Shown: one piece after another, positions 1 to 6,192 of the stretch | Layout: each line of letters begins with the position of its first letter | How positions within the stretch are numbered: position 1 is the stretch's first letter | The notes under the pieces: generated by a model | What the model was told of the DNA's origin: nothing | Database searches by the model: none | What the model saw: the letters and a program-made list of their open reading frames with translations, nothing else | Origin: Pseudomonadota bacterium | GTDB lineage: Bacteria; Pseudomonadota; Alphaproteobacteria; Rhizobiales; MH13 | Assembly (NCBI GenBank): GCA_039814945.1 | Contig: JBCCAF010000004.1 | Span: forward strand, 258,380 to 322,379 | DNA length: 64,000 bases | Direction: 5' to 3' | Position numbers and translations under genes: made by a program

Positions 1-298
1 CGCCCGCTAAGGGCGATTCATTAAACGATGTGCCGCCAAAACAGTGGCTGCTTTGCGGCGCATCATTGCATTGTGGGCGTTGTGTCTCACAAAGGTTCGA
101 CCGGGGCAATTGATTGAAAGGCCCGAAAAGCCTTTGTTTGGTATTGCCGCAAAGGCGCATGACCTATGCAAGATGCGATCTTGTCATTGTACAGGCTGCT
201 AGAGCATGGTGAATGAAGCGTTAAGGGAACAAGGGTGCAAACCCGGTTTGGCGGTGATCGTCACCTTGGCTGGCGGGACATAAGGAAACGATCTGGCG

Positions 299-2506
299 AT
301 GGCGCAGACAGGCGACAGCACACCTTCAAAAGGCCGAGCGGCAAAAACAGCGCAGGCCAAGCGTGGCACAACCAAACGCGCGCCAGCTAGAAAGGCTGCA
401 ACTGGCAAAGCCGCCGAGTCGTCGGAGCCGAAGACCCGAACACGTTCGACACGCGCGGCCCAAACGACTCGAAAGCCCGCCACAAAGGCTTCAACAACAG
501 CGTCAAAAGCAGCAAATCCAAAAACTGCTGCACCTAAAGCCACCAAAGCGCCAGCACGGAAGACCACAGCAAAGGTTGCGGTTCGCGCCTCAACTAAGTC
601 GTCCGCCGCCAAAACCGCCAAGCCTATGCAAGCGGTGGTAACACCGGACAAGCCTGTCACACCGCCGACACCGGAAGCGCCTGCTCAAACCAAACGGCGC
701 GCCGCCGAACCTGACGAACGGCCACTGGAAGACTATTCCATCAACGACCCGGAAGCGTTTGCTGAGAACCTTGGTAAGTTCGTTGAGCAATCAGGCCGGG
801 TGTGGGCAGCCTATCTAAAGCCACGCGAAGAAGGCGAAGTGCGCGCCGTGCAGGCTGACGAGATGGGTGAGGTTGTTAAGACCTTGAGTCAGGTTTCTGA
901 ATATTGGCTCTCTGATCCCAAGCGCCTTTTGGAAGCGCAAACAAGGCTTTGGTCCGGTTTCTTTGATCTCTGGACAGGGTCGATGGCACGCGTGTCGGGT
1001 GAAGAAACAACACCGGTGGTTGAGCCGGATTCGCGCGACCGCCGGTTTAAAGACCCTGAATGGTCGCGCAATCAGTTCTTCGACACGCTGAAGCAGGCCT
1101 ATCTGCTGATTTCCAACTGGGCCGACGATCTGGTGGACGAGGCGAGCGACCTTGATCCGCACACCAAGCATAAAGCGCAGTTTTATGTGAAGCAGATCGC
1201 CAGTGCGCTGGCACCAACCAATTTTGTCGGCACCAACCCAGAGCTCATCAAAGAGACGCTCGCCAGCAATGGCGAGAACCTGGTGCGCGGCCTTTCTATG
1301 CTCGCGGAAGACCTTCAAGAGGGTCATGGCGACCTGAAAGTGCGCATGACCGATACGCGCAAATTCAAGGTCGGCGAGAATATGGCCACCACGCCCGGCA
1401 AGGTGGTGATGCGCAATGATGTGTGCGAGCTGATCCAGTACACGCCGACCACCGACACCGTGCTGAAGCGACCCTTGCTGATGGTGCCGCCCTGGATCAA
1501 CAAATTCTATATTCTCGATCTCAACCCGCAAAAGAGCTTTATCAAATGGGCGGTAGCGCAGGGACACACCGTTTTTGTGGTCTCCTGGATAAACCCAGAC
1601 GCGACGCAGGCCCAAAAGGGCTTTGAGAACTATATGCGCGAGGGGATTATGGAATCCCTGACCGCCATAGAAGACATCACCGGCGAGCGACAGGTGAATG
1701 CCGCTGGTTACTGTGTTGGCGGCACGCTGCTCTCTGTGACCTTGGCCTATATGGCGGCGACCAATGATGATCGCATTGCCTCCGCCACGCTGTTCACCAC
1801 GCAGGTGGATTTCACCCATGCTGGCGACTTGAAGGTATTCGTGGACGAAGAGCAGTTGAAAGTCATGGAAGAGCAGATGGCCCGCAAAGGCTATCTGGAC
1901 GGCAAGAAAATGTCGTCGGCTTTCAACATGCTGCGCGCCAATGATCTGATCTGGCCATACGTCATCAACAACTACCTAAAGGGCAAGGACCCGCTGCCCT
2001 TCGATCTGCTTTACTGGAACTCTGATTCCACGCGCATGCCGGCAGCCAACCATCTGTTTTATCTGCGTAATTGCTATCTGGAAAACACGCTGTCGCGTGG
2101 CAAGATGGTGCTGGATGATGTGAAGCTGGACTTGGCCGATGTCACCGTACCGGTCTACAATCTGGCAACGCGCGAGGACCATATCGCGCCACCGCAATCG
2201 GTCTTTCTTGGCTCGCAATTCTTTGGCGGCGATGTGCGTTTTGTGCTTTCAGGCTCAGGGCATATTGCCGGTGTGATCAACCCGCCCGACAAGAACAAGT
2301 ATCAGTTTTGGACCGGCGCTGAACCACGCGGGCGCTACGAGGATTGGGTTGCCAAGGCTGGCGAAACGCCCGGCTCGTGGTGGCCGGATTGGCAAGCGTG
2401 GACCGAAGCCTTGGACGGTGAGCGCGTGAAACCACCGAAAACGGGTTCCAAGTCCTATCCTGAACTGATGGATGCGCCAGGCAGCTATGTGCTGATCAAG
2501 GCCTAG
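299..2506 (+). CDS. phaC: Class I poly(3-hydroxyalkanoate) synthase with long basic low-complexity N-terminal extension
   Basis: Lipase-like box GYCVGG (catalytic Cys), [23 protein letters not shown] (Asp), SGHIAG (His), GSWWPDW; AAGGA at 282-286 upstream of ATG 299. Confidence 0.96.
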
Positions 2507-2559: not shown

Positions 2560-5500
2560 TTATTTGGCAGTCGCCTCGCGACGGGCCGTCTTGGTGGACG
2601 TGTCAGACGCTGTGGGCTCGGCATCGTCACTGTTGGACGCAGTGTCTTTGTCTTTGCTGGCAGCACCGTTTGTCCCTGCCGATTGCCACGCTGGAAGAAG
2701 CGGTTTTGGTGTGCCAATGGGATCACGCCCACTGCCGCTGCGATAACGGTCCAAGGCGCTGGGGCGTGGTCTGCCCAGCGGCTTTTTCTCTTCATCAGCC
2801 TTTGGCTCTGTCTTCGTGTCAGTCGCGTCTTCGTCCTTGGATGCGGACGACTTGCTTGCAGTGGCACTGTTGGCGCGCGACGGCGCATCAGCAGGATCTT
2901 TGGTCGGCTTGTCTTTGATGCTGTCTTTGCTCGCGTCTTGGTCGCCATCCTTGGTTACCGCGCTCTTCTCATCCGCCCCCGTTTCATTGGCGTCATGTTC
3001 GATGACAACAGCCTCGTCCTCTTTTGGCTGCTCGGACGCCTTTTTGGTGCGCAAAGGCTCTGCCGGTTTGATCGTTGGTTTTTCAACGCGGTCAGAGCCC
3101 TTGGTCGATGAAGCAGCACGCGCCGCTGACGGCGTTGCAGCAGGGCGAGCACGCGGACGTTCAGGACGGGCGGCAGGCTGAGGAGGTGGTGACGGCGAGG
3201 CTTCGGTGGCCGCAGGTTGAGCAGGCCGGGCTGGCGGCTGCGCACTGACCGAGGGGGGTGGCGACGCAGGCTCTGGTGCAGCGATGGCTGGTTGTTCAGC
3301 CACTGCAATCGCTGAAGCTTGCTCTTTCAACGCAATTTCCTGGCCAAACGAGCGTAAGAACGTCGGCACGCCAGAGGCTGGGATTGGATGGCCAAACTGG
3401 AAGCCTTGACCGTATTCGCAGCCAAGCTTGGCGAGTTCCACTGCAACCTCTTCGCTCTCGATGCCCTCAGCAACGATGTCCATTTCTAGATCATGACCAA
3501 GCGCGACGATGGCGGCGAGCACCACAGCCGGTTCCCCAGGAACCATGTCGGTGACGAAGGATTGGTCGATCTTGATCGTGTCGAACGGGAAGCGCTGGAG
3601 ATAGGCAAGCGACGAATAGCCGGTGCCGAAATCATCCAGAGACAAACCGATGCCCAGTTCGCGACACCGCGCCAAAACCTGTGAGGCGTATTCTGGGTTC
3701 TCCATGACCAGAGATTCGGTCAACTCCAGCTTCAGGGCTGAACCAGGCAGATCAGCCCGGGCGAGAATGGCACGCAGATCGTTCAACAAATCGTGGCGCA
3801 GAAGCTGCCGGGAGGAAATGTTGACGCTGGTGAAAAGGCCAGCGGCGTTGGGATCGTTGCGCATCCAGCGGTTGAGGTCGCGTGCTGCGCGTTCCAGCAC
3901 AAAAAGGCCGACGGGAATGATAAGCCCCGAGCGCTCCGCAATTGGCACGAATTCAGCCGGCGCCATGCGACCATGGCGCGGATGATCCCAGCGTAGCAGC
4001 GCTTCAAAGCCAGCAAGCTTGCGATCTTCCAGGCGAATGATCGGCTGGTAAAAGACGGTCAGTTCATCATTGTCGAGCGCCTTACGGAGATCAGCTTCAA
4101 CCGCCGCGATGGAGCGACCGTGCTCACGCAAAGAGGGCCGGAACGCCTCACAGCGGTCGCCACCAAGGCGCTTGGCATGGGCCATCGCGATTTCAGCGTC
4201 GCGCAGGCAGTCCTCAGCACCGTCAGCATTGGGATCGTAGGTGGCAACACCAATGGAAACGGTGAGATTGACCTCATCATCTCCGAACACCACCGGTGTT
4301 TTCAGCGCCCGTCGGATCTGCTCGGTGAGCCGGGCAACGGAAGCTGGCTTCTGTTCTGACAACAGCAGAATGCCGAATTGATCGCCACTGAAACGCGCCA
4401 AGGTGTCATTGGGTTTGAGCAGCCGATCAATGCGGCGCGCCACCATAGTGAGCAACGAGTCAGCCGCGCTGGTGCCAACAGCGTCATTGTGCTGGGAAAA
4501 ATGGTCGATGTTCACGACGACAAGGGTTGGGCGCGCAATCTCTTCAGCGCGCGCACGTTCGAGCGCTGTCTGCGTGCGGTCAAGGAAAAGCTCACGATTG
4601 GGCAGGCCGGTCAAGCTGTCGTGGATGGCATCGCGCAGCAGTCGTTCCTGCGTTGTCTTCATCTCGGTGACATCGAGCATGGTGCCGATCAGGCGGAACA
4701 CCCCTTCATCGGCGACCACAGGACGGGCGCGCAGTCGGAACCATTTGAAGTGCCCGTCTTCGGCGCGCATACGCAGCGTCTGATCGATACGGCCACGACC
4801 GGTTGCAACCACGGTCTCCACCACATGGCGGAAATGGTCACGCTCGCCCGGGTGGATAGCACTGATCCAGTCTTGAAACGGGCCAGCTAACGAGCCGCGT
4901 TTAAGGCCCAGAATATCTTCGGTGGCAGGTGAGGAATACACGCGATCCTTGGCCAAATCCCAATCCCAGACCAGGTCGCCGGACCCACTAAGCGCCAGCA
5001 CTTTGCGTTCAGAGTCCGACACCAACCCTTCGGCCAGCGTGCCGCCCGCAAAGGCGTGTTGCATCACCGTGAAGCCAAGCAGAAGGACGAGCAGAACCAA
5101 TCCACCGGCAAGCGCTGGCGAGACCAGATCGTTGACGATGTAGCCGGAGACGGCAAGCCATGCGGCCAGCAGCCAGGCCATAAAAACCGTCCAGCTCGGG
5201 ATCAAATGCACGGCCCGGTCATAACCCTGTAAGGACATCGGCACGATGACAAGCAGCCCACCAATGCCAATCACACCCAGGCCCATGCGCGCGATGCCTG
5301 AGGCGATTTGCGGATCGAAAACAGCCAAGCCAATCAGCGAGGAAAAGAAAGCCGCCCAAACAAGGCCAATGCGGAAGAAGACGTTGTGGACCGCACCAAG
5401 GCTCAAATAGGCGTAGATCAGAAGCACCAAAGCTGCAGCCAGAACCACTTCAGCAATGGCACGGCTAACCTGCTCATCGCCCGGTTGCAGGTCGAAGATC

Positions 5501-6192
5501 TGGTTCCAGAAGCCAAACTCAATGGCGAGATAGGCTAGCACCGCCCAGGCCACGCCTGCCACAGCAGGGAACATGGCGGAGCGTTTGACGATGAAAAGGA
5601 TTGTCAGGAACAGCGCAAGCAGACCAGCGATGCCAAGGACGATGCCCTTGTAAAGCGTGGTGGCGTTGACGCTGTCGCGATAGGCATCATCCTCCCAGAG
5701 AATAAGCTGCGGCAGGCCCGGCGTGCGTAGTTCGACAACGTAGGTAACAACGGCGCCAGGATCGAGCGTGATGCGGAAAACATCGGCCTCCTGGCTTTCC
5801 AATCGCTCTGGCGCAAGGCCTTGGCTGGGCGAAATGGCCACCAAACGCGAGGCGCCAAGATCCGGCCAGATGATCTGGCTGTTGGCAAGCCGGAAGTGCG
5901 GCGCAACCAAAAGGCGGTCGATCTGTTCGTTGGACGTGTTTGTGAGCGCAAAGACGATCCAGCTTCCATTGCCATCGCCTTCGCGTGCCCGCACCTCAAT
6001 GCGGCGCACAATGCCATCAAGGCCCGGGGCCGTAGAAACCTGAATGCGGTCACCGACATCTACAAAGCGGTCGACAGCGCGGGTTAGATCCAGGGCCTCG
6101 ACATCCAGCGGCACATTGATCGCATCAAGGGCAGCGGCCGGTGTCGTGACCAGGCAAATGAGGCTCAATAAAAGGGCATGCAGCAGGCGCAA
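2560..6192 (-). CDS. Membrane sensor c-di-GMP phosphodiesterase (periplasmic sensor + multi-TM + PAS + degenerate GGDEF + EAL) with disordered C-terminal tail
   Basis: Signal-like N-terminus after TTG start, about 7 hydrophobic segments, PAS-like WDWD..., SGDQF at the GGDEF position, EALLRW and DDFGTGYSSL EAL motifs. Confidence 0.92.
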   Translation of the reverse strand: MRLLHALLLSLICLVTTPAAALDAINVPLDVEALDLTRAVDRFVDVGDRIQVSTAPGLDGIVRRIEVRAREGDGNGSWIVFALTNTSNEQIDRLLVAPHFRLANSQIIWPDLGASRLVAISPSQGLAPERLESQEADVFRITLDPGAVVTYVVELRTPGLPQLILWEDDAYRDSVNATTLYKGIVLGIAGLLALFLTILFIVKRSAMFPAVAGVAWAVLAYLAIEFGFWNQIFDLQPGDEQVSRAIAEVVLAAALVLLIYAYLSLGAVHNVFFRIGLVWAAFFSSLIGLAVFDPQIASGIARMGLGVIGIGGLLVIVPMSLQGYDRAVHLIPSWTVFMAWLLAAWLAVSGYIVNDLVSPALAGGLVLLVLLLGFTVMQHAFAGGTLAEGLVSDSERKVLALSGSGDLVWDWDLAKDRVYSSPATEDILGLKRGSLAGPFQDWISAIHPGERDHFRHVVETVVATGRGRIDQTLRMRAEDGHFKWFRLRARPVVADEGVFRLIGTMLDVTEMKTTQERLLRDAIHDSLTGLPNRELFLDRTQTALERARAEEIARPTLVVVNIDHFSQHNDAVGTSAADSLLTMVARRIDRLLKPNDTLARFSGDQFGILLLSEQKPASVARLTEQIRRALKTPVVFGDDEVNLTVSIGVATYDPNADGAEDCLRDAEIAMAHAKRLGGDRCEAFRPSLREHGRSIAAVEADLRKALDNDELTVFYQPIIRLEDRKLAGFEALLRWDHPRHGRMAPAEFVPIAERSGLIIPVGLFVLERAARDLNRWMRNDPNAAGLFTSVNISSRQLLRHDLLNDLRAILARADLPGSALKLELTESLVMENPEYASQVLARCRELGIGLSLDDFGTGYSSLAYLQRFPFDTIKIDQSFVTDMVPGEPAVVLAAIVALGHDLEMDIVAEGIESEEVAVELAKLGCEYGQGFQFGHPIPASGVPTFLRSFGQEIALKEQASAIAVAEQPAIAAPEPASPPPSVSAQPPARPAQPAATEASPSPPPQPAARPERPRARPAATPSAARAASSTKGSDRVEKPTIKPAEPLRTKKASEQPKEDEAVVIEHDANETGADEKSAVTKDGDQDASKDSIKDKPTKDPADAPSRANSATASKSSASKDEDATDTKTEPKADEEKKPLGRPRPSALDRYRSGSGRDPIGTPKPLLPAWQSAGTNGAASKDKDTASNSDDAEPTASDTSTKTARREATAK

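Follow-up and report, generated by a model that had tools for sequence, protein, structure and literature searches.

A polycationic N-terminal tail on a class I polyhydroxyalkanoate synthase of Hyphomicrobiales and its candidate role as a built-in nucleoid tether

The stretch of DNA considered here, hereafter the window, comprises 64,000 nucleotides (nt) of contig JBCCAF010000004.1 (positions 258,380 to 322,379; assembly GCA_039814945.1) and carries phaC, the gene for a class I polyhydroxyalkanoate (PHA) synthase. As shown by comparison with its orthologues, the predicted translation start of phaC is the ATG at position 299, and an extension of about 145 residues precedes the enzyme core. The first 109 residues of this extension form a strongly basic tail of low complexity. 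We propose, tentatively and with the case for it standing close to even, that the tail is a multivalent binder of polyanions, most probably of chromosomal DNA, which would tether PHA granules to the nucleoid without a separate adaptor. The genome is represented by a 4.2-Mb assembly from a marine metagenome (99.9% complete), and among named organisms Ahrensia marina comes closest to it, sharing 97% identity across the PhaC core. A first-pass annotation, made from the letters of the window, had suggested that this synthase may combine polymerisation with granule-to-nucleoid anchoring; in the light of the analysis below the suggestion is plausible and partly supported.

Start site of phaC

All 12 intact orthologues (at least 82% identity in the core) retain an in-frame tail of 124-259 amino acids (aa), and each of these tails opens with a conserved N-terminal dodecapeptide or a variant of it. 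Within the genus as delimited in GTDB, the PhaC open frames are 718-991 aa long in 15 of the 15 species that could be evaluated; a sixteenth species, in which PhaC is cut by the end of the contig, was left out. Such an alignment had been recommended in the first-pass annotation as a measure of how widespread the tail is, and the tail was found throughout the genus. Seven of the orthologues (L006-L011 and L014) lack an internal ATG altogether, and Met110, encoded by ATG 626 in the window, is kept only in the six closest relatives.

The phaC frame is the only frame of the tail that is free of stop codons in all 12 orthologues, each of the others being interrupted in some of them. Differences in tail length among the orthologues amount to whole codons: the indels traced base by base measure 21 nt (L001 against L013) and 3 nt (an offset in L009/L011). 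One example is a tail indel of seven residues between orthologues with 98% identical cores. Upstream of ATG 626 the mismatches are distributed over the three codon positions as 15/3/33, 23/6/55 and 15/3/49, and this three-base periodicity is highly significant (chi-square p=1.5e-6 to 8.5e-12). The ratio of non-synonymous to synonymous substitution rates (dN/dS) is 0.08-0.37 in the tail and 0.02-0.04 in the core. Judged by these ratios the tail is constrained, 4-10 times more loosely than the core. As the open frame, the periodicity, the dN/dS values and the orthologues lacking an internal start all agree, the tail is regarded as part of the protein.

Public annotation gives a different picture. 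In NCBI and RefSeq a length of 626 aa and a start at Met110 are given both for WP_375569949.1 of A. marina and for the protein of this very contig; the tail is hidden there because the start chosen is the internal ATG 626. Other gene callers, of the Prodigal type, yield 735-744 aa. It could be argued from the NCBI calls, from the retention of Met110 in the six closest relatives, from the rather long spacing of 12 nt between the Shine-Dalgarno (SD) sequence and ATG 299 and from the atypical codons of the tail that translation starts at ATG 626, the open frame before it being a 5' leader, but this is highly improbable given the periodic substitutions and low dN/dS (0.08-0.2) upstream of ATG 626, the frame that is open in every orthologue, the seven orthologues without any internal ATG, the lack of an SD sequence before it, the absence of a promoter-like site on the plus strand within positions 1-800, and the origin of the 626-aa calls elsewhere in frameshifted assemblies. 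The earlier observation that ATG 299 is in frame and preceded by AAGGA, ATG 626 having no SD sequence, was borne out directly in the sequence: no SD-like purine run is present in the 20 nt before ATG 626, and the motif AGGAAAC and its spacing to the upstream start are kept in L001-L005. ATG 626 and GTG 635 are the sole in-frame ATG or GTG codons between the start and the fold. On comparative grounds the short 626-aa model is contradicted. The RefSeq start drops 109 residues that are under purifying selection, and the annotation should be corrected.

Two cases in the genus that seemed to lack the tail, the JGI protein P0006 of 626 aa (L101) and a metagenome-assembled genome (L005), were rejected as natural variants, both carrying frameshifts in an otherwise intact tail. 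A single base is affected in L005 (JBKAGN010000005), and two compensating single-base frameshifts are found in L101 (Ga0612058_2357), as a result of which the internal Met is chosen by gene callers. Given an intact twin (P0004), the frameshifts are most likely assembly errors in low-complexity DNA. Two open reading frames (ORFs) that overlap the tail, one antisense (199..660) and one in the +1 frame (363..641), were also discarded. Each contains stops in several orthologues, and both are by-products of the low-complexity codons; when substitutions at codon positions 1 and 2 are compared, their ratio agrees with the plus frame.

Composition and conservation of the tail

The composition of residues 1-109 is A29 T20 K18 S10 R10 P8, that is, 87% Ala, Lys, Thr, Arg, Ser and Pro. 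There are 28 Lys or Arg residues against 3 Asp or Glu (net charge +25) and no Phe, Trp or Tyr. The recount matches the first-pass figures exactly, and the motifs pointed out at the time are in place, namely the 13-residue motif at aa 76-88 and RAPARKAA at aa 27-34. The basic residues are evenly spread, one every 1-8 residues and typically every 3-5. The tail has a calculated mass of 11 kDa and an isoelectric point (pI) of 12, and it raises the pI of the whole protein from 5.05 in the 626-aa form to 8.6. When all open frames of 150 aa or more in the genome (6,954 in number) were ranked by the share of these six amino acids in a 109-aa window, the tail came first (0.87; the runner-up has 0.79). 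Its composition is far from chance. The codons of the tail end in A in 35% of cases, compared with 12% in the gene body, as had been noticed at first sight; for the same amino acids the proportions are 36% and 19% (Fisher p=3e-4), and the bias recurs in most orthologues. The tail is followed by the Pro-rich linker that had also been described, with 7 Pro among its 32 residues (aa 110-141) and equal numbers of basic and acidic residues (5 K/R and 5 D/E).

In an AlphaFold2 model built with a 46-sequence alignment, the tail has no secondary structure and a predicted local distance difference test score (pLDDT) of 27-33. The score stays below 50 throughout aa 1-140, the confident fold begins at about aa 144-151, and the first helix spans aa 151-177. 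According to this model the tail is disordered. It is best classed, on predicted properties, as an intrinsically disordered polycationic tail and not as a member of a homology family.

Across 13 members of the genus the tail varies in length from 124 to 378 aa and its amino acid identity drops to 51%. The net charge is held at +0.14 to +0.21 per residue, and hydrophobic residues make up less than 4%. Since charge density is constant while sequence and length drift, selection acts on bulk physical properties and on a short N-terminal peptide. What these alignments show to be kept is the reading frame, the positive charge density and the low hydrophobicity, and neither the sequence nor the length. 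The exception is the first 12 residues (nt 299-334), whose conservation across the genus is much stronger than that of the remaining tail; the dodecapeptide could be a short linear motif or reflect a constraint on translation initiation.

The longest version was seen in another member of the genus (L094, in G006:C3), whose basic PhaC tail of approximately 380 aa contains 66 Lys and 27 Arg (net +80), three times the length of the tail in the window at equal charge density. That genome and two others (G006, G010 and G014) also encode a second, tail-less PhaC paralogue (504-543 bits).

Proposed function and its alternatives

PhaC remains attached to the growing chain of poly(3-hydroxybutyrate) (PHB) at the granule surface. 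With the synthase staying there and with tails of the genus carrying net charges of +23 to +80, a granule studded with tails would act as a multivalent DNA binder. Many tails would project from each granule and bind polyanions, most probably chromosomal DNA, in a multivalent and sequence-independent manner; the synthase and the nascent granules could then nucleate on the nucleoid, be spaced along it and be passed to both daughter cells. The tail would thereby do in cis what PhaM of Cupriavidus, PhaF of Pseudomonas and PhaH of Caulobacter do in trans. Lys-rich, natively unfolded tails resembling histone H1 are what ties granules to the nucleoid in the case of PhaM, PhaF and AlgP, and the first-pass account of PhaF and PhaM in these terms agrees with the reviews.

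Of the mechanisms considered, tethering is the best supported, by the constant positive charge density, by the PhaF/AlgP-like repeats in the tail of Phreatobacter (see below) and by the kind of proteins that bear K-rich tails here, roughly half of which work on DNA or RNA (TopA, UvrB, RNase R, an rRNA methyltransferase, Pth, ABC-F and ribosomal protein L21). A further precedent is that PhaM has been proposed to interact with PhaC at its N-terminal region. Also consistent with tethering by the synthase are the lack of a PhaF-type phasin, as PF05597 has no match anywhere in the genome or in PhaC, and the three Phasin_2 phasins, which are without basic tails; PhaR is ordinary. The absence of phaF-like genes, which had been proposed as a further check, was thus found as far as PF05597 is concerned, but the argument from complementarity is weak. 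To our knowledge neither PhaM nor PhaF is known from this order, for which reason their absence may carry little weight. Moreover, four proteins of the genome contain the helix-hairpin-helix domain H3TH, and with these present it cannot be claimed that no other tether exists.

The H3TH proteins belong to a series of points that weigh against the proposed role, a built-in tether filling no obvious gap in such a genome. K-rich tails similar to that of PhaC are also carried by TatB, a KefC-like protein (antiporter), ClpA and NuoE, which are unrelated to DNA. The hallmarks of the known DNA-binding tails are missing: PAKKA, PAKK, AKKA, AAKP and KPAA are absent from aa 1-145, as is the SPKK-type motif [ST]P[KR][KR] from the tail, where the looser [ST]PxK occurs only twice (TPSK at aa 8-11 and, at the beginning of the linker, TPDK at aa 115-118). 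The tail is Thr/Ser-rich and non-repetitive, and no tandem repeats were detected in the DNA by TRF in 250-800. Its charge density is probably below that of classical H1-type tails. No Pfam family, including the HC2/H1-like PF07382, matches aa 1-146 at E<=1, and NCBIfam models match the tail only at E 2.4-7.2, with no H1-like model among them; the tails of three relatives likewise have no match to any Pfam or NCBIfam family, although the composition correction of HMMER disfavours low-complexity sequences of this sort. Finally, no RNA runs containing this sequence were found, and transcript support is weak: RNA contigs of relatives cover 211-361 and reach 352 nt 5' of position 609, lending weak support to the long form. 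In sum, the parts of the first-pass proposal that hold are that the tail is translated, disordered and polycationic, with a conserved composition. The expected sequence signatures (PAKKA, AAKP or SPKK motifs and an H1/HC2 match) were not found, such tails occur on unrelated proteins, and the idea is not new.

As to the weak NCBIfam matches, one is to NF010381 (adenylate kinase, 335 aa; aa 3-109 of PhaC) and the other to StpX. The matching regions are low-complexity tails, one on an extended adenylate kinase and the other on the Caulobacter stalk protein StpX, which hints that tails of this type are attached to assorted enzymes of Alphaproteobacteria.

A rather unlikely alternative is that the tail serves as an entropic bristle or solubility tag, a hydrated brush that keeps free PhaC soluble and stops granules from coalescing or proteins from adsorbing non-specifically, with no polyanion required. 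The complete disorder in the AlphaFold2 model would suit a brush, as would the conservation of composition alone at free length, the lack of a DNA-binding motif or hidden Markov model match, the similar tails of TatB, the KefC-like protein and ClpA, and the existence of PhaC N-extensions that are near-neutral and Pro-rich (P0096 and P0081). A pure spacer could, however, just as well be neutral or acidic, whereas all 13 members of the genus keep a positive charge density that hardly varies and the tails of other lineages are net positive; besides, three phasins, the usual anti-coalescence proteins, are already present.

It is unlikely, too, that the tail attaches the granules to some other polyanion or surface, such as polyphosphate (polyP) granules, RNA and ribosomes or the anionic inner membrane, and couples the initiation of PHB granules to that site. 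The H1-like AlgP localises to polyP granules and spaces them, and the K-rich tails of RNase R, L21, ABC-F, Pth, the rRNA methyltransferase, TatB and the KefC-like protein would agree with RNA or membrane targets; since binding would be purely electrostatic, specificity is unreadable from sequence. Yet hydrophobic or aromatic residues that could support membrane insertion are missing from the tail, nothing connects this PhaC with polyP, and all three characterised PHB tethers use DNA.

Regulation in cis is distinctly unlikely. Here dimerisation, the lag phase or turnover would be controlled through contact of the pI-12 tail with the core, which is acidic (pI 5.1), or through a partner that recognises the N-terminal dodecapeptide, the tail acting as a PhaM mimic or a degron. 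The N-terminal region of class I PhaC does affect dimerisation and granule morphology and is the proposed site of interaction with PhaM, which activates PhaC1, and the much better conservation of the first 12 residues would be explained. Tail-bearing cores are also somewhat more acidic, with a net charge of -15 on average compared with -9.6. This difference is, however, confounded by phylogeny, 13 of the 21 tail-bearing cores coming from one genus and those of Phreatobacter ranging from -9 to 0, and charge compensation of an acidic core was rejected on this account. AlphaFold2 predicts no docking of the tail on the core, and tails of up to 378 aa are hard to explain by regulation alone.

Granule positioning and inheritance are known for three adaptors only, PhaM, PhaF and PhaH. 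Were the anchor part of the synthase, one gene would provide both polymerisation and positioning. Tethering by PhaC would explain how lineages without a recognised adaptor of the PhaM or PhaF type might organise their granules, and strains used for PHA production could be given a minimal module with which to engineer the number and size of their granules. Cultured tail-bearing organisms include A. marina, Phreatobacter cathodiphilus and Salinarimonas.

The remaining part of the protein is a class I synthase, in which a helical N-domain, PhaC_N and an alpha/beta hydrolase make up a core of pI about 5.1. The score with TIGR01838 over aa 205-732 is 777.8 bits, above the cut-off of 622.65, and the models for class II and class III stay under their cut-offs; PF07167 (PhaC_N) corresponds to aa 246-418 and PF00561 to aa 419-658. 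G470, Y471, C472, V473, G474, G475, D627 and H655 are invariant in the 46-sequence alignment, C472, D627 and H655 being the predicted catalytic triad by homology. No other PhaC was hit in the genome. The gene is monocistronic and adjoins a divergent aminotransferase gene and a convergent GGDEF/EAL gene, and no PhaE or PhaR partner gene was found adjacent to it among the inspected neighbours. The convergent neighbour (window 2560-6192, minus strand) encodes a 1,210-aa PAS/GGDEF/EAL membrane protein with a disordered C-terminal tail of approximately 260 aa, first Pro/Ala-rich and then of mixed charge, and is kept next to phaC in relatives (L101).

The coordinates of the phaC features and of the four H3TH proteins are listed in Table 1. 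The H3TH copies of the four proteins are 50-60% identical to each other. A homologue search with the H3TH protein of the nuo operon gave no phasin names, and its full-length relatives are mostly from the same genus. Standalone H3TH proteins have the same architecture as that reported for the Caulobacter tether PhaH. Elsewhere in the genome, a Phasin_2 gene (C2:79590-79877, plus strand) lies directly 5' of clpA (open frame from about C2:80658, plus strand), the product of which has the K-rich C-terminal tail …KAKRKAPAKKKAAPAKATASKTTGRKKPG…; and a protein of 695 aa encoded some 9 kb upstream of the window (C25:247246-249333, minus strand) has a basic Pro/Lys/Arg-rich N-terminal extension, MAKPPKDNNPSPDTPPKSPRKPRARTAP….

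Table 1. Features of phaC in the window and H3TH proteins elsewhere in the genome
Feature	Position	Strand	Basis or remark
phaC ORF	299..2506	+	735 aa, class I PHA synthase
SD-like AAGGA	282..286	+	12 nt 5' of ATG 299; read directly from the sequence
Predicted true start codon, M1	299..301	+	dodecapeptide-like start in 12 orthologues; sole frame stop-free in 12/12
Polycationic, predicted disordered tail, aa 1-109	299..625	+	composition, pLDDT, codon-position mismatches, dN/dS
Internal in-frame ATG, M110	626..628	+	start in NCBI/RefSeq annotation (626-aa product); without SD
Pro-rich, charge-balanced linker, aa 110-145	626..733	+	composition, pLDDT
Class I PHA synthase core, aa 146-735, and stop codon	734..2506	+	TIGR01838, PF07167, PF00561, AlphaFold2 fold
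Lipase box GYCVGG, aa 470-475, with catalytic Cys472 (by homology)	1706..1723	+	invariant alignment columns
H3TH protein: hydrophobic W/M-rich N-terminus, K/A/P linker, C-terminal H3TH	C42:91011-91778	-	downstream of nuoE
NuoE with K/A/P-rich linker to H3TH	C42:93116-94273	-	
H3TH on ribosomal protein L21, K/A/P-rich linker	C31:169644-169832	-	
H3TH on membrane-anchored protein, acidic linker	C25:62772-62972	-	

Distribution in Hyphomicrobiales and comparison with known systems

Most PhaCs of Hyphomicrobiales are about 600 aa long, including the 601-aa proteins of Stappia, Roseibium and Pannonibacter (65-69% identity), and among 401 genomes sampled from the order the PhaC open frames are mostly 600-650 aa. 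Three genera have consistently long frames: the genus of the window, Phreatobacter (g24) and a genus of family f15 (g16). The PhaC of P. cathodiphilus is annotated at NCBI with 837 aa (WP_106748510.1), and its tail (L084, G038:C1:1815174-1818357) contains perfect (AKTPA)n/AKTP repeats, about 12 units in all; the extension in g16 is mixed and R/K/P/E-rich. K-rich PhaC tails were also found in Salinarimonadaceae and in one f32 genome (G243). The tails of these four other lineages are net positive, though more weakly so (+0.06 to +0.13 per residue). Some other N-extensions of PhaC, the P0096 and P0081 already mentioned, do not share this charge. No tail underlies the long frames in G135, G149, G111, G222, G178, G204 and G272, which are spurious upstream open frames.

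In the core tree the tail-bearing groups fall into several separate clades, and at least five gains or losses are forced by well-supported branches. The N-terminal peptides differ between the tail-bearing lineages. The proteins of Phreatobacter and Salinarimonadaceae resemble the one studied here in being class I synthases of the same order with the same core and a basic disordered N-tail of 200-250 residues; they differ in their start peptides (MAKRDSGKPK…(AKTPA)n and MADNRTSRSD…) and sit on separate branches of the core tree. Literature searches found no publications on the PhaC tails of these two groups. Phreatobacter is a freshwater or groundwater genus. A link between tails and salinity, suggested by Ahrensia, Salinarimonas and Cobetia, was dropped, Phreatobacter being tail-bearing too.

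A broader and more doubtful reading, which we offer as a possibility only, is that synthases have repeatedly gained a polycationic disordered DNA anchor of their own: N-terminal in at least four to five lineages of Hyphomicrobiales (Ahrensia, Phreatobacter, Salinarimonadaceae, f15 and G243) and C-terminal in Halomonadaceae. The length of such anchors (124-378 aa at constant charge density) might tune granule number and spacing, and their occurrence would be partly hidden by start-codon calls. If this is true, the enzyme that nucleates the granule would also fix it to the chromosome, free of any adaptor.

Among the known systems, PhaM of Cupriavidus necator (Ralstonia eutropha) H16 likewise has a Lys-rich, H1-like disordered tail, which joins the PhaC/PHB initiation complex to the nucleoid and governs how many granules form and how they are inherited; PhaM works jointly with PhaC1. 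It is, however, a separate 32-kDa protein that activates PhaC1 and has a C-terminal tail with PAKKA motifs, whereas the tail described here is in cis and without PAKKA. PhaF of Pseudomonas putida and AlgP of P. aeruginosa share with it an unfolded K/A/P-rich tail that binds DNA non-specifically and tethers PHA or polyP granules. PhaF differs in its PF05597 phasin domain and in its tandem AAKP repeats, in contrast to the non-repetitive, Thr/Ser-rich tail of the window; the (AKTPA)n tail of Phreatobacter is much closer to the PhaF/AlgP type than is the Ahrensia tail. PhaH of Caulobacter crescentus is, according to reviews of the work of Salinas et al. (2023), also an alphaproteobacterial granule-nucleoid tether without a phasin domain, but there DNA is bound by a folded H3TH domain, which this PhaC lacks. 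In the present genome the PhaH-type H3TH stands behind low-complexity linkers in four other proteins, K/A/P-rich in three of them.

The closest parallel is PhaC2 of Cobetia and Halomonas, a class I synthase that likewise carries, covalently joined to it, a long extension of basic, low-complexity sequence (Christensen et al., 2021; PMC8686332). The concept of a synthase-borne anchor is therefore not new, the C-terminal extension of Cobetia PhaC2 having been proposed in silico as a nucleoid anchor that might replace PhaM (Christensen et al., 2021; PMC8686332). That extension belongs to Gammaproteobacteria (Halomonadaceae), is predicted to be coiled, matches HC2 and in some copies contains AAKP motifs (PMC8686332); the tail described here is N-terminal, has no HC2 match or such motifs and is not homologous to it. 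No description of N-terminal basic tails on PhaC was found in the literature searches. What appears to be new is an N-terminal, non-repetitive variant conserved across a genus of a cultured marine lineage, the recurrence of such tails in several lineages of Hyphomicrobiales, and the RefSeq start that hides the tail from view.

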